From the IMG/VR virus record IMGVR_UViG_3300011335_000526, positions 1 to 41,438 of that record: DNA of 41,438 bases. One strand, 5' to 3'. Of this stretch, positions 548 through 22,993 are shown one piece after another. The position numbers were made by a program, and so were the translations under genes. The DNA is from a virus (lineage: Duplodnaviria > Caudoviricetes). The notes under the pieces were generated by a model that saw only the letters and a program-made list of their open reading frames with translations, made no database searches and was not told the DNA's origin. Numbering within the stretch: position 1 is the first letter of the stretch; every line of letters starts with the position of its first letter.

Positions 548-762
548 CTGATTCGCTCCGGTAATGCCACAACAACACGGCTGAATTGTGACGCATCAAC
601 ACATCGATCTGGCCTTGCAAACACAGATCGGCTCAACTGACTTGCGACCACACCGCCAGACGGGACGCCAGAATCTGTAGTCGCACCCCCAGCCAAACCC
701 CACGTCCGAAACGCAAAGCCCTGAAAGGCAAACCCCCGTTGTGAGTATCGTCCTTGGCTCAT
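544..762 (-). CDS. Hypothetical protein
   Basis: 72 aa ORF coupled by 4-nt overlaps to both neighbours. Confidence 0.6.
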   Translation of the reverse strand: MSQGRYSQRGFAFQGFAFRTWGLAGGATTDSGVPSGGVVASQLSRSVFARPDRCVDASQFSRVVVALPERIR

Positions 763-1559
763 GCTTTCGTCAGCGTCGGTGCTGTCCTTGTTCCAGTGGA
801 AGTCAACCCTGCCATCGCAACTCGATAGTTAACACCAAACTGTGTGATGTCGTATTGCTCCGTCGACGTTTGCGGATTCGCGACGGCCCCAGAGCCGATT
901 GCCAAAAGCCAACCGGCAGAGTCTTGGATGTTGGCAATCTCCGTACTACCACTCAACCCATCCGCCTGGCAGTCGTGGACATCGGCGGCAATATGATTAG
1001 CCCCGGTGACCTTGACCGCTCTGCCGTTTGTGCCATCGCTAATCAACAGCAACTCACCGAATGAATCTGCTGTAAATGTTTCTGTGGTGAGAGTATTCCA
1101 GATCGCGAGACGACTAGAGGAGTCCAGTTCCGATGCTACTTTGTGCGTCGATGGATCGTATCCGGTATCGGCAAAGTCCTTCAGGTCTGTTGCCGATTGA
1201 GCATCGCCCCCAATCTGAGTCACGTCCGCCGCCAGGACATCAGTTCCAAGCACGATCGCATCATACACAGCCGCGGGAACAACCTGCCGCTCTTTCACTG
1301 GCATCTGGTACGTGGCTTTATTGCACGAAATCTGAATCACTCCGAGCGTGTTGGTGTCAGTTGTCGTTAGCGTCAGTGAGTAGTGCCCATTGCCAGCATG
1401 AGTGAACGTGTTTCCTGACATTGCTGCCCGGCTACCGTTCTTTGTGATGGTTAGATCCGCAATCACTGCGGACGCATATTCTGCCCCGGTCGAATCCAGA
1501 ATCGGACCAACATCAAGAATCACGGATGTTGATTGTCTCGCCATCACGCCCGTTGACAT
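759..1559 (-). CDS. Putative virion structural protein (fibre/baseplate-like)
   Basis: 266 aa, Thr/Ala/Gly rich; beta-sandwich-like N-terminus (GNGHYSLTLTTTDTNTLG); in an operon with the LamG protein. Confidence 0.55.
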   Translation of the reverse strand: MSTGVMARQSTSVILDVGPILDSTGAEYASAVIADLTITKNGSRAAMSGNTFTHAGNGHYSLTLTTTDTNTLGVIQISCNKATYQMPVKERQVVPAAVYDAIVLGTDVLAADVTQIGGDAQSATDLKDFADTGYDPSTHKVASELDSSSRLAIWNTLTTETFTADSFGELLLISDGTNGRAVKVTGANHIAADVHDCQADGLSGSTEIANIQDSAGWLLAIGSGAVANPQTSTEQYDITQFGVNYRVAMAGLTSTGTRTAPTLTKA

Positions 1560-3407: not shown

Positions 3408-3429
3408 ACGCGGATCAACAGATCCCCTG
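3408..3429. repeat. Degenerate copy of the 7-N7/8-7 inverted-arm site
   Basis: ACGCGGA-tcaacaga-TCCCCTG, 4 bp beyond the stop codon of 3434-3820. Confidence 0.45.
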
Positions 3430-3433
3430 TTAC

Positions 3434-3820
3434 CTACAAACACAACATTCCAAATATAAATAGGCTTCCGATCAGTGCCGCAACACTCAGTTCAGCCACA
3501 CTATCAATACCGGCACGCCTTGCGGCTTCCAAGTGGCAAACCGCCGCTGCGAGCTTCATTGAGTGCCGAAAAAAAATGTTCGCCACCGGACCATGATCGA
3601 ACCACCATTGCGTTGTGTCCCATTGCTTCAGTTTTGAGTACCAAGTGATGCCCCAATAGACGTTATCAGCAAACGCCCCGGCAAACCCTCTTACGATACC
3701 CGCAAGCAGTAATGTGTGACAGCCACCAGTTATTCGCGGCATCCACCCGCGCACAACGGCGAGACACATCAAGGCCGTCAATGCTGATAGCCATGTGTTT
3801 ACCATCAGGATGACGGGCAT
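3434..3820 (-). CDS. Multi-pass membrane protein
   Basis: 128 aa with three or more hydrophobic segments. Confidence 0.65.
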   Translation of the reverse strand: MPVILMVNTWLSALTALMCLAVVRGWMPRITGGCHTLLLAGIVRGFAGAFADNVYWGITWYSKLKQWDTTQWWFDHGPVANIFFRHSMKLAAAVCHLEAARRAGIDSVAELSVAALIGSLFIFGMLCL

Positions 3821-6466: not shown

Positions 6467-6924
6467 CGCGAGTACCTCTCAATCCACGCCGCTTCTTTTT
6501 CTGCGGTCCATTGCTCGCCGCCAAACGCTTTCGCCTCTTCGGTCAGCAGAACAATCCACGCCGCTTCAGCTTTGGGAATGAATCGCGACGACATCCAGGC
6601 GGCTGAATCTGCCTCACTCTTGATTTCACCGGCTTGGAGTGCTTTGGATCGCTCTCCTGATAGGCTGCGGAATGCTGATTCCTGCGCGTCGAAGACGGCA
6701 GAGACTGAATCCGCAGGGACCGGCTCCGGCCCAACCTCAATGCCGCCAGCCGCATAAACGCCAGCCACGGCACCGCAAACAATCCACGCGGCAGCCTTAG
6801 CCCCACCTACAAGCCAAGACCGCCACGCGATTGACTTCGGGGGCGAGACAACGGCAGCAGGGGCTTTCTTAGCCGCTGGCTTTCGCTTCGCTGGTGCCTT
6901 CTTTGCAGGGGCTTTTTTGGCCAT
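6463..6924 (-). CDS. Membrane-anchored protein with Lys/Ala/Pro-rich N-terminus
   Basis: MAKKAPAKKAPAKRKPAAKKAPA, then a hydrophobic segment and a helical domain. Confidence 0.7.
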   Translation of the reverse strand: MAKKAPAKKAPAKRKPAAKKAPAAVVSPPKSIAWRSWLVGGAKAAAWIVCGAVAGVYAAGGIEVGPEPVPADSVSAVFDAQESAFRSLSGERSKALQAGEIKSEADSAAWMSSRFIPKAEAAWIVLLTEEAKAFGGEQWTAEKEAAWIERYSR

Positions 6925-7112
6925 TACTTGGCCGCCTTGCCAAAGTCAGCAAGACCTTGGCTCACAACATAGGCCGCAATCGCACCGATGATCTGCGTAA
7001 TGGCCTCTTCGGGAAGTTGCAGGCCAATTCTGTTACTGGCCACAATCAACACGCCCGCAATCGTCGCGATGGCTTTTTTGCTGGTCAGGACTTCGCCAAT
7101 CAGCTTCCACAT
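6924..7112 (-). CDS. Putative holin
   Basis: 62 aa, two hydrophobic helices, ends QGLADFGKAAK; heads the peptidase block. Confidence 0.65.
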   Translation of the reverse strand: MWKLIGEVLTSKKAIATIAGVLIVASNRIGLQLPEEAITQIIGAIAAYVVSQGLADFGKAAK

Positions 7113-7201: not shown

Positions 7202-7229
7202 AGTGTACCAGGGTTTGAAACGCTGTCAA
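7202..7229 (-). promoter_or_regulatory. Sigma70-like promoter for the lysis block
   Basis: TTGACA(7229-24)-16 bp-TACACT(7207-02). Confidence 0.6.
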
Positions 7230-7242
7230 TGGCTTAGGGCAA

Positions 7243-7263
7243 CACCGGAGTTCCGATCCGCTG
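7243..7263. repeat. Cassette-boundary site 1
   Basis: CACCGGA-gttccga-TCCGCTG, 4 bp beyond the stop of 7268-7564. Confidence 0.8.
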
Positions 7264-7267
7264 TTGA

Positions 7268-7564
7268 TCAGGCCTCAAATCTCGTTTTGATTTGCTCAAC
7301 TGCCCGATCAACATTGTCGCACAGTATTTCGTACGCCTCATCCCAATTCGCCATTAGTTTACGATCGTTAATCGCACTGGCGTCGTTTTCAGGCGGGTCA
7401 ATGTAAATGTCTGAATCAGATGACAATGCCCTCACGATCAACGTCAACCACGCACGCTTTTTGCTGTCAGACGGCATTCGTCGATTCAAAATCTCTTCGA
7501 TATGCTCGTACACCACAGAGTCTTCTGTTGTGTTATCAAATTCAAAAATTGTCTTGAGTGCCAT
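7268..7564 (-). CDS. Hypothetical protein (single-gene cassette)
   Basis: 98 aa; RBS GGGGAG; bounded by sites 1 and 2. Confidence 0.75.
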   Translation of the reverse strand: MALKTIFEFDNTTEDSVVYEHIEEILNRRMPSDSKKRAWLTLIVRALSSDSDIYIDPPENDASAINDRKLMANWDEAYEILCDNVDRAVEQIKTRFEA

Positions 7565-7583
7565 TTTTTATTCTCCCCGCGCC

Positions 7584-7604
7584 TATCGGACGTGCTGACC
7601 TCTG
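7584..7604. repeat. Cassette-boundary site 2
   Basis: TATCGGA-cgtgctg-ACCTCTG. Confidence 0.75.
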
Positions 7605-7623
7605 TTGATTTCCGGATAAATTT

Positions 7624-7710
7624 TCATAAGTGCTGTGAAATGAAAACCAAAGTTACGGCCACCCACACAAGGAACATAAACACAACATTTCGTTTCATGT
7701 CTTTCGTCAT
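7624..7710 (-). CDS. 28-aa hydrophobic peptide (not in the ORF track)
   Basis: MTKDMKRNVVFMFLVWVAVTLVFISQHL; GAGG upstream; only plausible content between sites 2 and 3. Confidence 0.5.
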   Translation of the reverse strand: MTKDMKRNVVFMFLVWVAVTLVFISQHL

Positions 7711-7752
7711 CTCTGCCGCCTCATTCTGAATGGTACTGTTTCTTGTGTTACA

Positions 7753-7773
7753 CAGAGGTATGGTTATCCGCTG
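7753..7773. repeat. Cassette-boundary site 3
   Basis: CAGAGGT-atggtta-TCCGCTG, directly abutting the stop at 7774-7776. Confidence 0.85.
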
Positions 7774-7971
7774 CTATTGTTTCTTGAAACATGGGCAGTT
7801 CGGCGAATGCAAAACGTTCCCGTGACCAGATTCCGTTGCCCTGACATAGTCATGGCCGTCAAATGTGACAATCGACCAAGACCAATGATCCGCGGAACCG
7901 TCTTTCAGTTTCGCGTTTTGATCTCCGTAGCACCCAGACAGCAACACGACGCACAACAAATACTTTCTCAC
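7774..7971 (-). CDS. Small lipoprotein (single-gene cassette)
   Basis: GTG at 7971 with RBS GGAGG gives MRKYLLCVVLLSGC (lipobox LSGC); ends HSPNCPC. Confidence 0.75.
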   Translation of the reverse strand: MRKYLLCVVLLSGCYGDQNAKLKDGSADHWSWSIVTFDGHDYVRATESGHGNVLHSPNCPCFKKQ

Positions 7972-8010
7972 AATGCCTCCTTTGACTATCAGAACTTTCT
8001 GCCACAGGGA

Positions 8011-8031
8011 CAGAGGACAGTTATTCCGCTG
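8011..8031. repeat. Cassette-boundary site 4
   Basis: CAGAGGA-cagttat-TCCGCTG; the stop of 8021-8293 lies inside the spacer. Confidence 0.85.
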
Positions 8032-8293
8032 CTTCGTCGCAGCACTCGACACAAAAATTCGCCGGAGCGTCATCATCATCCAAATCGGCCTCACAGTCCG
8101 GGCAAATCTCTTTCCCGCATCTATCGCACGAAGTGTACTCGTGCCCTTCGCCGTGCCCGCAGCCACGACACCAAAGCATCACTTCACCGCACGCCAGGCA
8201 ATTATCACCGCGAGTGATCTCGCCCCGGAACTGAGCGCCGCAGCAAGGCGTAAAGTCGGCTCGTTCGGAGTCACTGGTTCTTGTGTTGTTCAT
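8021..8293 (-). CDS. Cys-rich zinc-finger-like protein (single-gene cassette)
   Basis: Several CxxC pairs (CLAC, CRGC, CDRC, CPDC, CVEC). Confidence 0.7.
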   Translation of the reverse strand: MNNTRTSDSERADFTPCCGAQFRGEITRGDNCLACGEVMLWCRGCGHGEGHEYTSCDRCGKEICPDCEADLDDDDAPANFCVECCDEAAE

Positions 8294-8306
8294 GTTCCAT
8301 CCTGAC

Positions 8307-8327
8307 TATCGGATACAAGTTCCGCTG
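8307..8327. repeat. Cassette-boundary site 5
   Basis: TATCGGA-tacaagt-TCCGCTG, 1 bp beyond the stop at 8329-8331. Confidence 0.8.
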
Positions 8328-8328
8328 C

Positions 8329-8535
8329 TCATTCCACCTTAAACTCTGCGTCTGACTGCTCTTCCTGATCATCAATACTGGTGACTGAAGAGAACTCATA
8401 AACACCGTACGGCGTGTTGAAACAGATTTGCACCATCTCATCACGAGTAGGCGAAATATCAACGTCGTATCGATCAAGAAGAACCCGAAGCTCAAAGAAG
8501 AAATCAATCTCGTTTTGTGTCTGCCTCTTTGTCAC
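8329..8535 (-). CDS. Hypothetical protein
   Basis: 68 aa, GTGA-coupled to the upstream gene. Confidence 0.65.
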   Translation of the reverse strand: MTKRQTQNEIDFFFELRVLLDRYDVDISPTRDEMVQICFNTPYGVYEFSSVTSIDDQEEQSDAEFKVE

Positions 8536-8855
8536 TTTTCACCAGTCGCTTTCTTTATTGCAGCCTCGATTTTGTCACAAGCTGAATCACTTTCCTCGAA
8601 AATGACCGTGTCGCCTTCCACAATCTGACGCATCAACATCTGGCACGCCTCCAGCAGATCTGGCGCTGCCGCAATCAGCCGAGCGTTCGCAAACAATTCC
8701 TGCCGATGCTGCTCATTGACAATCGTCGCTGGCCAGCATTCCGCGACCACTTTAACATTGGCAGCACTTCGGTTCTGCGTGCAGACTGAAAAGCCTGAAT
8801 CTGTCGGCATTCCGCCGAACTGAACCACCCACGGGCCTAATGTTGGCACACTCAT
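8532..8855 (-). CDS. Conserved phage hypothetical protein (TPGPW...ANARLIAAAPDLL type)
   Basis: TLGPW near the N-terminus and ANARLIAAAPDLLEAC. Confidence 0.8.
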   Translation of the reverse strand: MSVPTLGPWVVQFGGMPTDSGFSVCTQNRSAANVKVVAECWPATIVNEQHRQELFANARLIAAAPDLLEACQMLMRQIVEGDTVIFEESDSACDKIEAAIKKATGEK

Positions 8856-9115
8856 GATTCATTCCCAAACTGCACGACCGTAAACGTAGACTTTGGTTTT
8901 TGTAGGCGACTCGTCCACACATTGCTTGGCTGCAAAACGTGGCCTTTGCCGTATTCCTTGAACCAGATGCGGTCCTCATGGACAGCGACGACTCGCAACA
9001 TAGATTCATGTTGAAACTCTCCGCCTGTCACCTCGTCAATGATCCATTCTTTGATGTCGACTACATCGCCACGGATTGGCGTTATCTCAACATCTGTTTT
9101 TGTTCGGAAACCCAT
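8852..9115 (-). CDS. Hypothetical protein
   Basis: Track ORF 8852-9343; ATG at 9115 overlapping the upstream stop (TGATG) preferred. Confidence 0.6.
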   Translation of the reverse strand: MGFRTKTDVEITPIRGDVVDIKEWIIDEVTGGEFQHESMLRVVAVHEDRIWFKEYGKGHVLQPSNVWTSRLQKPKSTFTVVQFGNES

Positions 9116-9438
9116 CACGTTCTTCCCAGTTGTTGTTTGGCCAATTCCAACCCCGTAGTCTTCGGATGAACGAACTGGGCCGCCATGCTGTCCATCGCCT
9201 CTTTGTAAATCAGCAGTTCGCGATAGTGCGACAGCAATACCTCGTACCCAGCCACTGTACGCTCGCTGACTTTCTGAGCCTGAATCAGGTCGCTCCGTGT
9301 CGGCATGGCCTGCAACATCTGGCCAGTACCGATCGGCAACCATCCAATCAGCCGAACGCCGTACACTGGGCCTGAATCTGCTGTGATTGCGTCCATGTGT
9401 TTTTGTGCCACCCTTCGTTTTTCTGCCTGCGTTACCAT
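9115..9438 (-). CDS. Hypothetical protein
   Basis: 107 aa ORF in the coupled run. Confidence 0.65.
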   Translation of the reverse strand: MVTQAEKRRVAQKHMDAITADSGPVYGVRLIGWLPIGTGQMLQAMPTRSDLIQAQKVSERTVAGYEVLLSHYRELLIYKEAMDSMAAQFVHPKTTGLELAKQQLGRT

Positions 9439-9444
9439 TGTCGC

Positions 9445-9804
9445 TTACCCGTCGTATCGATGAATGTAAAAATCCAGTCCTGCACTGGCCGCCGTCTCAA
9501 TCATGTTCCTTGTCCCACGACTCTTGCCATCCCAGACAGCTATCAGGGCGTCCGCCATTCCTGCCATCTGCCTGTTTCGGATTGGCCCCGCAGCCCTTCC
9601 GTAAGCCTTCCAGTCAGCAGGAACAGGCTTGACCGGCCAAAGACCCTCGCAAACCCTGTGTGCGGCTGAATCGACGCCTGACGCTGCTCCGTGAATGATC
9701 TCGGTAATCTTGCCAGCCCAGCCGCTTTTCGAGATTGCTTCTCTGACCAGTTCGTCGGCCTTTTCCCCAGCTACTTCGCGACCGCCTGCGATGATTACCC
9801 GCAT
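9445..9804 (-). CDS. SLOG family protein (YspA/DUF2493-like)
   Basis: MRVIIAGGR, IIHGAASGVD, PADWKAYGRAAGPIRNRQM, WDGKSRGTRNMI; ATG 9804 with RBS GGAG. Confidence 0.88.
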   Translation of the reverse strand: MRVIIAGGREVAGEKADELVREAISKSGWAGKITEIIHGAASGVDSAAHRVCEGLWPVKPVPADWKAYGRAAGPIRNRQMAGMADALIAVWDGKSRGTRNMIETAASAGLDFYIHRYDG

Positions 9805-9828
9805 TGAAAACTCCAATGTTTTTAAGAA

Positions 9829-9849
9829 CAGCGGATGCAATTACCTCTG
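9829..9849. repeat. Cassette-boundary site 6
   Basis: CAGCGGA-tgcaatt-ACCTCTG (extends GAA../..TTC), 1 bp beyond the stop at 9851-9853. Confidence 0.85.
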
Positions 9850-9850
9850 T

Positions 9851-10279
9851 TCAAAACGACCCGACATCCGTAGCCCAATCCGCCGCAACATCAAGCTCGC
9901 GGCGAATCCCCTCCAGGCTGACCCACAAATCATGCTCAGTCTTGCAGATTCCGCCATCCGCCATTCCGGCCTGTACGATGGCTTCCAGTTTCTTTTCCGC
10001 TTGCTGCACGGCATTCAGCAAATGTGGGGCACACGCGATCAACACCACGTTACGCCACCGATCGCCATCCTCGCCATCGCGAATGATATTGTTCTCGCCG
10101 TACTCATCTGGACCGCACGGAATGCAGTCGATTTCGCAGACCTGCACTACCATGTGCGGACTACCTGCGATCGGAATATGAATCACCGCCGTCGCCTCGT
10201 CAGCCTCGGGATGGTCCCTGTCAATCCTGCATTCCCAGGACATCATTCCATTTTCCAATAGCCTGCTTTTCATGATCAA
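9851..10279 (-). CDS. Hypothetical protein (single-gene cassette)
   Basis: 142 aa; NVVLIACAPHLLNA resembles the LIAAAP motif; bounded by sites 6 and 7. Confidence 0.7.
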   Translation of the reverse strand: MIMKSRLLENGMMSWECRIDRDHPEADEATAVIHIPIAGSPHMVVQVCEIDCIPCGPDEYGENNIIRDGEDGDRWRNVVLIACAPHLLNAVQQAEKKLEAIVQAGMADGGICKTEHDLWVSLEGIRRELDVAADWATDVGSF

Positions 10280-10298
10280 TCCCCTTTGTTTTTGTGAA

Positions 10299-10320
10299 CA
10301 GCGGATGTTCTAATTCGCTA
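10299..10320. repeat. Cassette-boundary site 7 (8-bp spacer)
   Basis: CAGCGGA-tgttctaa-TTCGCTA; overlaps the stop at 10318-10320. Confidence 0.65.
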
Positions 10321-10491
10321 GCCTTCAGCGTCATCAATCAGCAATCCAATCGCCTCCGACACGCTGACGCCTTGCCGCTTCGCAAGTCGCTTGATCTTCT
10401 TGCGTCGTTTCGGATTGATCCACAGTGACATGACCTTGGCTCGCATTCCTGCGGGATGTTTCGGGCGACCTTTTGAGGCTTTCTTTTTCAT
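10318..10491 (-). CDS. Ribbon-helix-helix (CopG-like) DNA-binding protein (not in the ORF track)
   Basis: 57 aa MKKKASKGRPKHPAGMRAKVMSLWINPKRRKKIKRLAKRQGVSVSEAIGLLIDDAEG: GRP, beta strand, helix-G-x-S-x-S-helix. Confidence 0.8.
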   Translation of the reverse strand: MKKKASKGRPKHPAGMRAKVMSLWINPKRRKKIKRLAKRQGVSVSEAIGLLIDDAEG

Positions 10492-10497
10492 AGACAA

Positions 10498-10526
10498 AAG
10501 CTATTAGGTTTATTGTGGGAAGTCAA
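10498..10526 (-). promoter_or_regulatory. Sigma70-like promoter heading the accessory array (likely leaderless)
   Basis: TTGACT(10526-21)-17 bp-TAGCTT(10503-498), 6 nt before the ATG at 10491; no SD. Confidence 0.65.
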
Positions 10527-10559
10527 CAGTTATCTTTTCAATTGCGATCCTCTGTACAG

Positions 10560-10850
10560 TATTCGCCGACCCTTCTTTCTTCTTTCAATACGAGGGCAGG
10601 AAAGAGACATATTGAAAACACTGGGGTTTTCGATGTAGTAAAACCCAACAGGGTGCCCCCCCCTTGAAACGTAGAAAGAAGTCTCTTAAAGAGTGTCTTT
10701 TATAAGCGCTAAAAGAATTTTCCCCCTATTTTATAGGGTTTTGCGTAGTGTACATTTGTTATGACTTAATTATTACTACGCCTTGAACTCTCAAGAAAGA
10801 AGTTTAAAGAAGTCACTTTTTGCACAGACTTCATTCAACTTCGTGCTTAA
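10560..10850. other. Putative replication origin
   Basis: About 300 bp, AT-rich and non-coding, downstream of the primase-helicase; repeats CCTTGAA..AGAAAGAAGT (10662-82, 10781-803) and inverted CTTCTTTCT copies near 10572. Confidence 0.5.
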
Positions 10851-10854
10851 ACGA

Positions 10855-10888
10855 AAAGAGCCGTTTCGGGTGTCCGAAACGGCTCTTT
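10855..10888. terminator. Bidirectional intrinsic terminator
   Basis: 15-bp perfect inverted repeat AAAGAGCCGTTTCGG-gtgt-CCGAAACGGCTCTTT. Confidence 0.85.
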
Positions 10889-17421: not shown

Positions 17422-18189
17422 TCAATTACCTTTCAAAACTTCACTCGGGACAAAAAACTCTGCATACTTCTCGAACGAAAACTCAACCATTTCTTCCGGC
17501 ATGTTCAAACGGTTCTTGGCACGGACTCCCGCCGTTGGCTGCGTCCTGACGAAACGCTCGCTGCCACCCGCCGCGATGTTTCGAGTGCGATTAAATCCGG
17601 TGTCTTCTTTGACTGCGTAAGTCCGGAATGATCCGAAGAAAACTTCCTGGCACCAGTCGCAAAGGAGATCACGAGCGAACTCACAAACGGACGGCTCCCA
17701 GCGTTCGTACGATGGCGCATCTGGCGGCGTAATCTTCACGGCCTCGCTGTGAGCAAGCAGGATGATTCCCAGCCCGCGTTCTGTGTGCAGCCAGTCCAGT
17801 TGGAACTTAATTTTGTCCCACATCGCCTCGATGAACTTGTTGCCCTTGCCGTACGAGAACTTGTCGTCAGCCATGTTCTCGACGTTCTTCTCTTTGCAGA
17901 TCTGCTTTTCGATGATCCGCTGCAAAGCGTCGATTGTGTCGATGGCAATCCAGCGATAAGGAAACTCACCTTTTGCGGCTGCTGTGTCGCAATGCAACCA
18001 GAATTCCTGCCACTCATCCCACGTTCGAATCGGTGGCGTCTTATCCATGTCAACGTCTCGATCGTCTTCGAGATTGGCTAACAGTGCCCCGCCGAATGCC
18101 TGCGAAGCAAACGTTGTCTTTCCGATAAAGTTCGTCCCATGAAACAGGACACGACGTGGTCCGCCCTGTTTTCCTTTCAAGATCTTCAC
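17422..18189 (-). CDS. Sak4-like AAA ATPase (phage recombination protein)
   Basis: Walker A HGTNFIGKTT, Walker B IAIDTID, YGKG, LLAH, AKNR; GTG 18189 preferred. Confidence 0.85.
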   Translation of the reverse strand: MKILKGKQGGPRRVLFHGTNFIGKTTFASQAFGGALLANLEDDRDVDMDKTPPIRTWDEWQEFWLHCDTAAAKGEFPYRWIAIDTIDALQRIIEKQICKEKNVENMADDKFSYGKGNKFIEAMWDKIKFQLDWLHTERGLGIILLAHSEAVKITPPDAPSYERWEPSVCEFARDLLCDWCQEVFFGSFRTYAVKEDTGFNRTRNIAAGGSERFVRTQPTAGVRAKNRLNMPEEMVEFSFEKYAEFFVPSEVLKGN

Positions 18190-18563
18190 TGCTCTTTTCT
18201 CCGCTCTAAATGACACTCAGAACACAACACTCTCAAACCATCCGATTCGCAGAACAGCCGATCGGCGAACACGCTCAGATCGGCAAATGATTTCAATGAG
18301 CCACATGGCTCGATGTGGTCAACCTCAACCTCTTTGCGTGCAAACCATTGGTCGCAACGTTCGCATAAAAACTCCCACTTCAGCCTCTTGTTGTCGCTCT
18401 GGCTTTTGCGTTTCACTCGCTCCAGTGCATGACGAACAAGCGGAGGCCATCGACGTGACAACTGACGAAGACCGGAGCGGATGAATCCCCAGAACGCAGC
18501 TTCAGTCCACTCACCCCCGGCGCGAGTTCTCTCGACTCTGTTTGTCTTCGCTTTGCGGCTCAT
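18186..18563 (-). CDS. HNH endonuclease
   Basis: CERC..EVDHIEP..LRVLCSECH; ATG 18563 preferred. Confidence 0.85.
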   Translation of the reverse strand: MSRKAKTNRVERTRAGGEWTEAAFWGFIRSGLRQLSRRWPPLVRHALERVKRKSQSDNKRLKWEFLCERCDQWFARKEVEVDHIEPCGSLKSFADLSVFADRLFCESDGLRVLCSECHLERRKEQ

Positions 18564-18811
18564 CCCTGCCCCCTCAATACGCCCATGCCGCCCGGCAGCA
18601 TCTTTGTGCTGCATTCCCTAATCATCGGGGCTCGATACACGCCTTTGTTCTCCGGATGATCAGGCCGTTCCATGCGAATCATTTCCGCCAGCCCGATTGT
18701 TGTCTCCGTGCCCCAGATCTCTTCCAAGGAAGGATCTCTGGTCATTGGCTTGTGGCCTGTCGGAGCGTGTAATCTGTTGGATTTCTTTCCGGCTTTCTTG
18801 CGTCGTGTCAT
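18560..18811 (-). CDS. Hypothetical protein
   Basis: 83 aa, coupled to csrA; DPSLEEI motif. Confidence 0.65.
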   Translation of the reverse strand: MTRRKKAGKKSNRLHAPTGHKPMTRDPSLEEIWGTETTIGLAEMIRMERPDHPENKGVYRAPMIRECSTKMLPGGMGVLRGQG

Positions 18812-19080
18812 TACACTTTCCTCCGCATCAGTTCGCCGGGAAGTCGTTCACCAATTCGAATCACTGGCACAAGCGGAGCGATTGGAAACGCCTCTGGATT
18901 GAAGCCAGTTTCCTGAATCGCGTCGTGAATCTCTTTGCGATCAATCCTCACGCTTTTCGATGCTGTGAAGCCGAGCCGTGCGTGGTTAGTTCCAATCGTG
19001 TCGACCAGCTTGACCACGATTGTTTCTTCGCCGACCGTGATAATGATTTCTTCGCTGACTGATCTTCGAAGCACTAGCAT
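18811..19080 (-). CDS. csrA: Carbon storage regulator CsrA/RsmA homolog
   Basis: MLVLRR..EEIII....RLGFTASKSVRIDRKEI matches the CsrA pattern MLVLTR..E.I.I..V.LGI.AP..V.I.R.E; RBS AAGGA. Confidence 0.9.
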   Translation of the reverse strand: MLVLRRSVSEEIIITVGEETIVVKLVDTIGTNHARLGFTASKSVRIDRKEIHDAIQETGFNPEAFPIAPLVPVIRIGERLPGELMRRKV

Positions 19081-21059: not shown

Positions 21060-21563
21060 TCAATCGAATTCTGCATCAGGCTTCCACGCAATCGCCTGTA
21101 TGTCTTCGCCCACTTGCTCCGAATCAATCCATCCGAGCCCAGCGTCTCTCATTGCCTGGCTGACCTCACTGGCTGACAGGTTCCGGTAATGTTCTCCATC
21201 CAGCAATCGGTGCTCGCCGTCAATCGCGGAGTGCTCTTCGCGCCCCGGACCAGCGCAGGTCACAATTAGCCGCCCGTCTGGCTTGAGCCAAGAGGACGCA
21301 ACCGCGATGAGTTCCTTCCAGTTGGCCGCGTGCTCAAGAACCTCGCAGCACACGACAAGATCGACTGGTTCTGCCGGTGAATAGGTCGCAGCATCGCACA
21401 CAACGTCGACGGCAGGACCGGGATGCAAGTCGAGCCCGATCCATTGAGCGTTAGGCCAGAACGCACGGGCGCTGCCGTTAATATCACGACTGCCGATCTC
21501 GATGACGGACAACGAATCCATCGAACCGAATTGTTTCAGGAATGTGAGGCATTCAGGATGCAC
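21060..21563 (-). CDS. Class I SAM-dependent methyltransferase
   Basis: VIEIGSRDING, WIGLD, VDVVCD, DLVVCCEVLEH, LKPDGRLIVT. Confidence 0.92.
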   Translation of the reverse strand: MHPECLTFLKQFGSMDSLSVIEIGSRDINGSARAFWPNAQWIGLDLHPGPAVDVVCDAATYSPAEPVDLVVCCEVLEHAANWKELIAVASSWLKPDGRLIVTCAGPGREEHSAIDGEHRLLDGEHYRNLSASEVSQAMRDAGLGWIDSEQVGEDIQAIAWKPDAEFD

Positions 21564-22146
21564 TGGTCAGCCCTCCAGAAAAGTCGGCATGTGATTTGGC
21601 CGCGTGGTCATATCGCAGATCCCACGCAAAGAGAGCGAGCGTCTTCCGGAACTGATTCGCATTGGCTGACACCGGCTTGACCTCGTGCCATTGGTTCGCG
21701 GTCTCAAAGATGATCGCCTGCCCTGGCTCCGGGAAGATCTCCACATTCCCGGCCGGACCTTCAATCATCAGCTGTCCACCGTGCTCAGGATTCCATGATG
21801 AGTTCACGCCCATCACGATTGAGTGCGTGCGCCGCCATGTGCGGATCGGATGACACTCTGCGTCTAGATGCCGGGCAAGGAATCCGCCAGGTGGCATTTG
21901 ATGGCAGCCCGCTGCATGTAGATCGTAATCAATGAACGATTCGCCGATGTGCGGGATGACAGCCAGCGCCAACGCATCCAGAGCGGCGAGACATGCCGGC
22001 GGAAGTCGGTCGCGGTCCATCGAGCCGTACTTATTCCCAGTCTTGCCGTTGTATCGGTGCCAGTATGGCCAGTCCGGTGATGGCCATGCAGCTTCAGCAG
22101 CTCGCACGAGTGAAGCAGGGATTGCGTTCTTGATGATTTCAACCAC
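21553..22146 (-). CDS. 2OG-Fe(II) oxygenase (prolyl-4-hydroxylase-like)
   Basis: GGFLARHLD (HxD), WNPEHGGQL, WHEV, RKTLALF; GTG 22146 preferred. Confidence 0.88.
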   Translation of the reverse strand: MVEIIKNAIPASLVRAAEAAWPSPDWPYWHRYNGKTGNKYGSMDRDRLPPACLAALDALALAVIPHIGESFIDYDLHAAGCHQMPPGGFLARHLDAECHPIRTWRRTHSIVMGVNSSWNPEHGGQLMIEGPAGNVEIFPEPGQAIIFETANQWHEVKPVSANANQFRKTLALFAWDLRYDHAAKSHADFSGGLTSAS

Positions 22147-22993
22147 GTAACTTCTCCTGATACTTGGCCCACTCCGGCCACACCGTCGATTCCCAGTATG
22201 GCAGGTCATACATGCGGCGAGAGTCATTCAAAAACAGGCATGCAGTCTCTCTCGGATCGCACATTTTCCCGAACCATGATTCTGTGCCCGCAAACCACTG
22301 GTCAACATCGCGCCAGTTTCGCTTGCCGATTTCAGCTAATCTCCACCATGCGAACGTCCCTGAGTACGCCCAATCGTGCCACTTTCCGAGCAGCCCATAT
22401 TCCTTGAAACTGCCAGCCATCAGCGATGTTCGGAGTGCGTTGTAAACGGACGGCCAATCGTCCAGACATGACTGATACATCAGGTCCGTCCAGTCTCTCG
22501 TGTGCTTCGGGTCTTCGTACTTCTGTCCTTTTGCGTGGGCGGAAAACACGACTTCATTTGCACCGGCCGACTGTGGTTTCAGAATCTCCAGCATCGGCAA
22601 CCAGGTGACAACCTCGCGGAGTCTTGGAATGTTCTGCCTGATAATCACATGATCGAATTTCAGCCCGAGCGATTCCGCGAACGCCAGAACGACATCCGCT
22701 GGTTTCGCATCTTTGTCTTCCACAATGCCGATGATCTTCTTTCCGTTGAACAGCTTCCACCGCTTTGCCAGTTGTTCCATATTCCATTGCCATGAGTCGC
22801 CTTTGTTTGATGCCCAAACGTGATACGTCAAATGCCGGACGCTGGAAACGAACGGCCCAACTTCAATCCGTGGCCCATCGGCTTCAGATCGCCATCCGGT
22901 GTATGGTCTTCGGCCCGGTCGAGGCTTAGCCACAGCAGCGGCTGGTGATCGCTTTGCCGGGCGTTTGGTTCTTTTTTTTTTGACGGCGGACAC
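22139..22993 (-). CDS. Glycosyltransferase-like domain, probably the C-terminal part of a frameshift fusion
   Basis: TYHV, LREVVT, FSAHAKG, YSGTFAWW, ESWFG resemble HxKG/YSGNFWW-type GT-like phage proteins; no clear SD; entered from the upstream ORF by -1 slip at A10. Confidence 0.55.
   Translation of the reverse strand: MSAVKKKRTKRPAKRSPAAAVAKPRPGRRPYTGWRSEADGPRIEVGPFVSSVRHLTYHVWASNKGDSWQWNMEQLAKRWKLFNGKKIIGIVEDKDAKPADVVLAFAESLGLKFDHVIIRQNIPRLREVVTWLPMLEILKPQSAGANEVVFSAHAKGQKYEDPKHTRDWTDLMYQSCLDDWPSVYNALRTSLMAGSFKEYGLLGKWHDWAYSGTFAWWRLAEIGKRNWRDVDQWFAGTESWFGKMCDPRETACLFLNDSRRMYDLPYWESTVWPEWAKYQEKLRG

Follow-up and report, generated by a model that had tools for sequence, protein, structure and literature searches.

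Ordered short sites with recurring spacers mark gene boundaries in a group of tailed phages and are linked to a predicted tyrosine recombinase

Introduction

Why should one region of a phage genome carry a row of short sites that share their arms and differ in their centres? How phages come to swap unrelated genes with clean edges is a long-standing question, framed by the modular theory and by linker sequences. In this study, we have explored it in the viral record IMGVR_UViG_3300011335_000526 (Duplodnaviria; Caudoviricetes), whose whole length of 41,438 bases is the window analysed here (estimated completeness 88%). The window holds an array of such sites between the end of its primase gene and a holin-like gene, and an earlier note, made from the sequence alone, had read it as an integron-like series of gene cassettes. 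Judging from the comparison of related sequences, these sites are ordered boundaries, each with a spacer of its own, at which gene content differs; they are probably crossover sites for a phage-encoded tyrosine recombinase that would swap genes between co-infecting genomes.

Results

The sites of the window

Both arms of the sites follow one shared consensus and enclose a spacer of 7-8 bases, which we call the address. The window has nine:

Site 1: 10299..10320, minus strand, 8-base spacer ttagaaca, a variant of the first address gtggaaca
Site 2: 9829..9849, minus strand, spacer aattgca; stop codon 9851-53, 1 base off
Site 3: 8307..8327, minus strand, spacer acttgta (18 identical copies); stop codon 8329-31, 1 base off
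Site 4: 8011..8031, minus strand, spacer ataactg; stop codon 8021-23, of open reading frame (ORF) 8021-8293, within the spacer
Site 5: 7753..7773, minus strand, spacer taaccat; stop codon 7774-76 adjacent
Site 6: 7584..7604, minus strand, spacer cagcacg; stop codon 7624-26, 19 bases off
Site 7, end of the array: 7243..7263, minus strand, spacer tcggaac; stop codon 7268-70, 4 bases off
Outlying site with weak arms: 3408..3429, minus strand, spacer tctgttga (tcgttga class, also in relatives)
Outlying site: 1115..1135, minus strand, spacer actggac, in frame within ORF 759-1559

Five sites of two 7-base arms around seven bases, with at most two mismatches to one arm consensus, lie in 7243-9849, and 60 Markov simulations of the window gave 0.42 per 41 kb. 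A weight matrix passed over the whole window returned eight sites, the array's seven and 1115-1135 (the ninth, 3408-3429, being the weak-armed one), and in its refined form matched twice in 497 kb of simulated sequence. The seven sites of the array thus stand far above chance, and close relatives have the same arms.

The seven sites of the array have the coordinates, arms and spacer lengths that the earlier note gave them, and their spacers all differ. Also as it said, six are at most 4 bases from a stop codon and one is 19 bases away; at site 1 the stop codon (10318-20) of the gene for a ribbon-helix-helix (RHH) regulator is inside the arm. The next gene was said to begin about 15-45 bp further on, which is right for six sites (13-42 bases) and wrong for the one at 7243, where a promoter-like element follows instead after 13 bases. 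The two outlying sites are additional to that description; the one at 3408-3429 lies 4 bases past the stop of ORF 3434-3820. The half-site proposed at 10548-54 lacks a second arm, and 5 of 13 aligned relatives do not have it, which leaves it unsupported as a part of the system. A consensus scan did not pick the single promoter proposed at 10498-10526, though 14 aligned loci agree in all its -35 bases.

The units between the sites were described as mostly single genes, and five of the six indeed hold one ORF:

RHH-type regulator gene, before site 1: 10318..10491, minus strand; it occupies the position that a recombinase gene has in 8 relatives, and the array does not require it
Promoter-like element before the RHH gene: 10498..10526, minus strand, with a separate palindrome over its -10 region
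Cassette 1: 9851..10273, minus strand, a single ORF of 140 residues
Cassette 2: 8329..9804, minus strand, five ORFs, the first SLOG/YspA-like; the largest cassette of the window
Cassette 3: 8021..8293, minus strand, a zinc-ribbon-like ORF of 90 residues
Cassette 4: 7774..7971, minus strand, an ORF of 65 residues
Cassette 5: 7624..7710, minus strand, a hydrophobic ORF of 28 codons, read from the sequence
Cassette 6: 7268..7564, minus strand, an ORF of 98 residues
Promoter-like element after site 7: 7202..7229, minus strand, 10 of 12 matches with an extended -10
Holin-like gene: 6924..7112, minus strand, preceded by that element

Records compared

Searches for relatives started from two genes: the RHH gene brought in 19 viral loci and 19 from metagenomes, the holin-like gene 49 viral ones. 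After removal of repeats and near-identical records (L002-L015, L017-L020, L024-L026, L032, L034, L036, L038, L041, L047, L049, L051, L056, L057, L059-L061 and L064-L067) and of records with no site (L044, L046, L052, L053 and L055), a non-redundant set of 34 records was left, to which the counts below refer unless another set is named. It holds 185 sites by the matrix and 213 once 28 weak-armed sites found by their spacer are added; the same spacer search on reversed sequence gave 0. A stop codon ends within -21 to +10 of the arm start at 170 of the 213 sites, as against 12.6% of random positions.

Nine related records (31-43 kb, several incomplete) differ in capsid, terminase and replication genes and have no window protein common to all nine, yet sites occur in all of them: the site system is their shared element. 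A weight-matrix scan of 37 loci from more distant, holin-related phages found 0 sites. Searches for the host were less telling. Among genomes there was a single match, to an unrelated genome; a window protein used as query had no match in the protein atlas, a plasmid search had none either, and another search returned only distant phages. By the look of some protein motifs, the host might be a planctomycete. A second lineage (G014, G015, G020 and L180) has some spacers of its own and a G just outside the arms (28 of 30 and 18 of 20, compared with 131 of 426). Further sites were seen upstream of the array, in the replication region (L033:5203, L042:629, and L164 and L166:5867), which suggests crossover points around the genome.

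Spacers as ordered addresses

The 185 matrix sites fall into 33 spacer classes, and no class is repeated within a record. Their 590 ordered pairs contain 0 conflicts, where 200 shuffles averaged 150 and never fell below 122, and with all 213 sites there were again 0 conflicts, in 822 ordered pairs, and 0 repeated classes. This test excluded G004, whose contig is cut within the series; it used G006 in rotated form and G014 with its two leading outlying sites placed last. The window's own series is a subset of the common order. In 13 records fetched later and not used to establish the order, 67 of 92 sites had a spacer already seen, and 210 pairs agreed with it, 1 disagreed and 4 were undetermined. 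Within a class, similarity is 0.84 and 0.85 in the arms, 0.58 and 0.49 in the four flanking bases, and 0.98 in the spacer, this last figure being inflated, to the detriment of our interpretation, as the classes were drawn by spacer similarity. The spacer of site 2 can serve as an example, since its 20 copies are identical in the spacer and include 5 left-arm and 3 right-arm variants.

These observations bear directly on an integron- or Tn916-like cycle, in which circles would be excised between unmatched sites and re-inserted elsewhere, the order being an after-effect of selection. A recombinase gene beside the first site (see below), co-oriented single-gene units, empty slots and changes of slot would all suit such a cycle. 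Re-insertion should, however, move or duplicate spacers, and none of the 822 pairs and one of the 211 determined later pairs is out of order. Re-ordering of the integron type at attI is not what we see, for site order is fixed and slots change only in a minority of cassette pairs. The sites are also not attC, as had been recognised: both R boxes occur within 60 bases at 0 of the 213 sites, and there is no hairpin signal. We therefore regard this cycle as quite improbable. Tn916-like tolerance of unmatched spacers does not agree with spacers that recur exactly across phages, are unrepeated within a record and keep one order, and the same order evidence points away from excision and re-stacking and towards spacer-matched exchange between genomes.

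A predicted tyrosine recombinase linked to the array

None of the 64 genes of the window encodes an integrase or recombinase, as judged by protein-family scans and a family profile search of the window, in agreement with the earlier note. A candidate came from the relatives. A gene for a protein of about 405 residues, first spotted before the first site in L058, is present in 12 viral records, and all 11 that could be judged carry the array. In 8 records the distance between its stop and the first site is 0-4 bases, with the ordered array behind it (13 sites in L168, where the gene is at 9410-10627); in 3 divergent members (44-46% identity) the array lies ~4-6 kb downstream, and 1 record ends within the gene. 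In L164, the window's cassette 1 and both its sites stand directly behind the enzyme gene (90% over 502 bases). A tyrosine recombinase linked to such arrays had been named as something to look for, and this family is our candidate.

The protein is a predicted tyrosine recombinase. Catalytic R, K, R, H and Y are kept in 25 members down to ~21% identity, and in L168 the residues R217, K262, R348, H370 and Y385 match the R-K-H-R-H/W-Y set of tyrosine recombinases except for its first H. All 33 rows listed by Foldseek are tyrosine recombinases, with a best E of 0.0024 on a predicted model of mean pLDDT 66. SAM-like integrase domain matches were obtained in 5 of 22 homologues (2 above cut-off), and a general integrase match in PHROG in 1 of 3 members. 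The C-terminal half gave no match in Pfam, and the protein had no sequence match in the PDB. A profile search for the family returned 121 clusters at E 0.001 and 15 at 1e-30; in placing its distant members on DNA, a narrower alignment gave no new record and a broad one was too loose.

The sites could also be recombination sites served by another enzyme. This might be a tyrosine recombinase of 292 residues encoded by G010 (at L106:1180-2058), some ordinary integrase of a phage, or a Xer-type protein of the host. A Pfam integrase model matched proteins in 2 of 10 relatives. One candidate, a G007 integrase of 372 residues, was rejected as an ordinary arm-type phage integrase present in 1 of 9 genomes. 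The G010 protein, our first candidate, has an intact active site and the tyrosine-recombinase fold, and the array is found in 4 of the 11 records that carry its family. It was demoted because in 7 of the 11, several of them fragments and one of them (G012) 84% complete, the array is not seen. In addition, its gene is far from the array and on the opposite strand, and the presence of both families in L163 and L165 fits separate jobs. From the phage genes compared, we hold service by another enzyme to be very improbable. The G010 family has no arm-binding domain, mostly no Pfam match and 138 clusters; its gene is divergent from a helix-turn-helix (HTH) gene, its nearest atlas clusters are viral, and a host search with the protein gave viral clusters only. 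De novo searches for other arm sequences in its carriers found nothing convincing, and the stop-anchored version missed the window's own array. Repeats in G017 were set aside as a coding tandem repeat, judged by their spacing.

Gene content at the sites

If the sites are boundaries of exchange, neighbours should change across them. Among 1059 same-class site pairs, which are not independent of one another, 17 share both flanks, 250 the upstream flank only (215 of these being the first site), 30 the downstream flank only and 682 neither, with 80 unclear. Of the 682 pairs without a shared flank, 641 have identical spacers, although classes allowed one change. The 126 segments of at least 40 bases form 87 families, 72 of them singletons; 7 of 133 slots are nearly empty, and 0 of 97 cassette matches are inverted. 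Ends of these matches fall at most 25 bases from a site in both records in 45 and 48 of the 97, compared with ~31 by random placement. Alignment of related genomes, the check suggested for the original reading, has similarity switching mostly at sites.

Individual sequences give the same picture. A contig of run X14, from another study, matches the array only at 7752-7773, 8015-8331 and 10280-10320 and has cassette 3 beside other neighbours; a contig of run X13, a run in which the population is deep, joins 8331 to 9826 across five letters, an empty slot. Contigs of runs X15, X16 and X20 again contain the unit 7579-7772, and cassette 4 matches L028 (96% over 237 bases), where its neighbours differ. 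Some contigs end off the sites, for example at 8649, 8687, 9286, 9360 and 9762, and two of the runs, X1 and X11, are from studies in which the window itself may have originated.

Could ordinary homologous recombination do the same? The sites would then be protein-bound regulatory or linker elements, and swaps would occur over 21-30 near-identical bases, for instance through a Sak4-like annealing protein such as the one the window encodes (17422..18216, minus strand), as has been proposed for T4 PeSLs. Such swaps would fit the way in which arms are shuffled against their flanks, and also those shifted cassettes whose ends lie at short leader or tail motifs and not at a spacer. The leader is a short A-rich motif before the ribosome site (9810-9820 and 10284-10296 in the window, and in many loci); it follows 55 of the 213 right arms, and these make up more than half of the 101 copies present in 613 kb, which also speaks for this alternative. 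The motif might serve as a second signal, or as micro-homology in gene capture. What homologous recombination leaves unexplained is a spacer conserved above the arms and a recombinase gene at the first site in 8 records; no protein is common to all array genomes, and Sak4 occurs in 3 of the 9. On this evidence we consider it unlikely.

The cargo consists mostly of small genes, with likely counter-defence genes where they are recognisable. Of 179 cassette proteins extracted from the relatives, 137 were compared with Pfam, and 13 of these 137 have matches: 4 DNA methyltransferases, an RNA ligase, a PAPS-reductase domain, Tad4, GNAT, a helicase, HTH and three DUFs. One cassette protein (L020:9814-10551) has the Tad4 anti-Thoeris domain fused to an N-terminal part without assignment.

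A site within a gene

The 1115-class site lies in an open frame, and in the same reading phase, in 12 of 12 records. In the window this frame is:

ORF of 266 residues: 759..1559, minus strand, its halves matching different relatives on each side of the 1115 site

G004 matches residues 143-265, from the site on, at 95%, and G002 mainly residues 7-163 at 60%. From these alignments, the system seems to exchange protein halves as well. Coding constraint may add to spacer conservation at this site. The same spacer is reverse-complemented at L178:10734-10754, a possible inversion.

Operators or hairpins

Two further alternatives had been raised for the array. The first, that the sites are operators of the adjacent RHH protein, draws on most of the loci obtained with RHH as the query, where its gene stands ahead of the first site, and on symmetric arms, which suit a dimer. 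Arrays without an RHH gene exist in G006, G008 and G009 (complete), as do arrays with unrelated regulators (G007, G014 and L063), and operators need neither ordered spacers nor an in-frame copy. The RHH protein also appears to have its own target: the palindrome at 10498-10512, over the -10 of the RHH promoter, changes together with the DNA-reading strand of RHH in L019 and L050 while the site stays, and is likely the RHH operator. That the sites are RHH operators is thus extremely unlikely.

The second holds that the sites are hairpins of RNA or single-strand DNA, for processing or attC-like folding. Inverted arms can pair, and one of the nine window sites folds better than its shuffles (z -2.35); the other eight have z between -1.31 and +1.01. 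Across sites, the two arms are less complementary than randomly paired arms (4.67 compared with 4.89 of 7), being perfect in 5 of 124 distinct sites. As pairing within a site is no better than between arms drawn at random, we give the hairpin explanation a negligible probability.

Other features of the window

All 64 ORFs taken as genes run on the minus strand, and they include a lambda-like terminase, portal, capsid, the Sak4-like annealing protein, SSB, helicase, primase and the holin-like gene. The window further encodes a CsrA-like regulator (18811-19080), and methyltransferase and 2OG-Fe(II) oxygenase genes lie side by side after the tail region (21060-22227). Upstream of the array promoter there is a perfect 15-base inverted repeat (10855-10888), a terminator-like hairpin.

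Discussion

The detailed comparison of these arrays offers a view of how phages could exchange genes without losing them. Lambda-family enzymes need spacer identity for strand exchange. In the mechanism that we propose, four recombinase subunits would bind the arms of two sites, and strand exchange would need matching spacers of 7-8 bases. Unlike spacers would keep the sites of one genome from reacting with each other and so block the self-deletion of cassettes, while two genomes in one cell could cross over in register at sites of the same address. With one crossover everything downstream would be exchanged, with two a single slot or several in a row; rare events between mismatched spacers might delete slots or shift a cassette with the order intact. 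The order would stay fixed because out-of-order sites give deletions or duplications on crossing. Genomes without the enzyme, such as the window, would be served in trans via co-infection. The broader picture, on which we come down by a little, is a population-level allelic crossover system in which ~30 address-coded sites would be read by a new tyrosine-recombinase family, and phages with unrelated capsid and replication modules would trade counter-defence genes, genome arms and protein halves in register.

Several findings weigh against this interpretation. Pairs of whole cassettes differ in the upstream spacer in 7 of 30 cases and in the downstream spacer in 13 of 30, and some slot-shifted pairs have different arms and flanks. 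The right arm tracks the downstream gene in 13 of 27 cases (background 230 of 855) and the left arm the upstream gene in 14 of 39 (325 of 855). As a clean mapping of crossovers fails and cassettes shift slot, either other recombination also acts or arms are often converted. The single order conflict is in G014, and L180 has one repeated spacer, with a damaged arm. On the side of the enzyme, the usual first His of the H-x-x-R motif is S346 in L168, the predicted model is weak, and there is no structural match at E 0.001. The gene is in 0 of 26 array-bearing records and 0 of 80 other records (window included), complete genomes among them, in a scan that found 12 of 12 positive controls; since most array-bearing records have no enzyme gene, action in trans is assumed. 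Finally, the co-occurrence of enzyme and array could reflect the mere shared gene pool of these phages.

What, then, remains of the initial reading? That the sites bound mobile gene units, that they have the core geometry of tyrosine recombinases and that an enzyme is needed in trans are all borne out. Action in trans would fit a window without enzyme, and the linked gene is one of sister phages.

Importantly, boundaries, spacer code and candidate enzyme have all been identified, and together they bear on how phages swap genes cleanly. If true, the broader picture would give the modular theory of phage evolution a dedicated molecular basis, and its recombination sites would form a natural library in which each is orthogonal to the others. 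The slots point to a pool of small genes, mostly without assignment, whose recognisable members are enriched in likely counter-defence functions. Were the matching of spacers strict, a single enzyme and its dozens of naturally orthogonal sites could be useful for ordered DNA assembly.

No description of this ordered-site system was found in the openly accessible literature, most subscription papers and supplements lying outside the search; what we did find were pdif modules, phage integrons and promoter(early) stem-loop elements (PeSLs). Read from sequence, the system would be a spacer-matched exchange of modules with its own enzyme family, undescribed in that literature. In engineered cassette exchange (heterospecific lox or FRT), two sites with shared arms and unlike spacers allow exchange between molecules with no excision; the phages would have a natural series of the kind, with ~30 spacer classes. 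Lambda Int acts on a single att pair that includes arm sites, and Tn916-type enzymes accept and randomise unmatched spacers. The phage sites resemble those of Lambda Int, Tn916 and Tn1549, structures of which are among the Foldseek rows, in their short inverted core arms around a 7-base overlap. Their spacers are matched and recurring, the opposite of the Tn916 pattern.

PeSLs of T4-type phages are promoter-terminator elements in a variable region that mark gene swaps, and the abstract of their description names no site-specific enzyme (PMC2839356). They are like the phage sites, as far as that abstract goes, in being repeated intergenic elements that mark gene swaps in a variable region. The phage sites differ in being short and symmetric, with spacers that resemble addresses and a recombinase linked to them. 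None of the six inner sites has a promoter- or terminator-like match, counts being equal to those of shuffles. Integrons and clusters of attC sites lacking integrases (CALINs) have been reported in phages too, in the consulted part of the source (PMC9892861). On that basis, they share with our arrays a tyrosine recombinase gene beside the first site, co-oriented and mostly single-gene units, and arrays without enzyme. Compared with integrons so described, the phages have no attC, no hairpin, an enzyme that is not IntI by Pfam or profile, a gene co-oriented with the array, and a fixed order.

The closest known system is that of the pdif modules of Acinetobacter. On these Rep_3 plasmids, according to the sections consulted, accessory modules are bounded by short arm-spacer-arm pdif or dif sites; recombination takes place between identical or nearly identical spacers, and single modules are proposed to be replaced via a cointegrate (PMC13141974). 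The same sections describe host XerC and XerD as the enzymes, and two unlike 11-base arms around a spacer of 6 bases; C and D modules alternate, a spacer can occur more than once on one plasmid, and inversions are seen (PMC13141974). With the table of that report compared by eye, the phages differ in having one symmetric arm, a 7-8-base spacer and, as predicted, an enzyme family borne by the phages themselves, and also in the lack of inversions among 97 matches, one population-wide order and no spacer repeats. In both systems, as far as those sections allow the comparison, short arm-spacer-arm sites bound the modules, and the comparative pattern in the phages fits exchange between like spacers.

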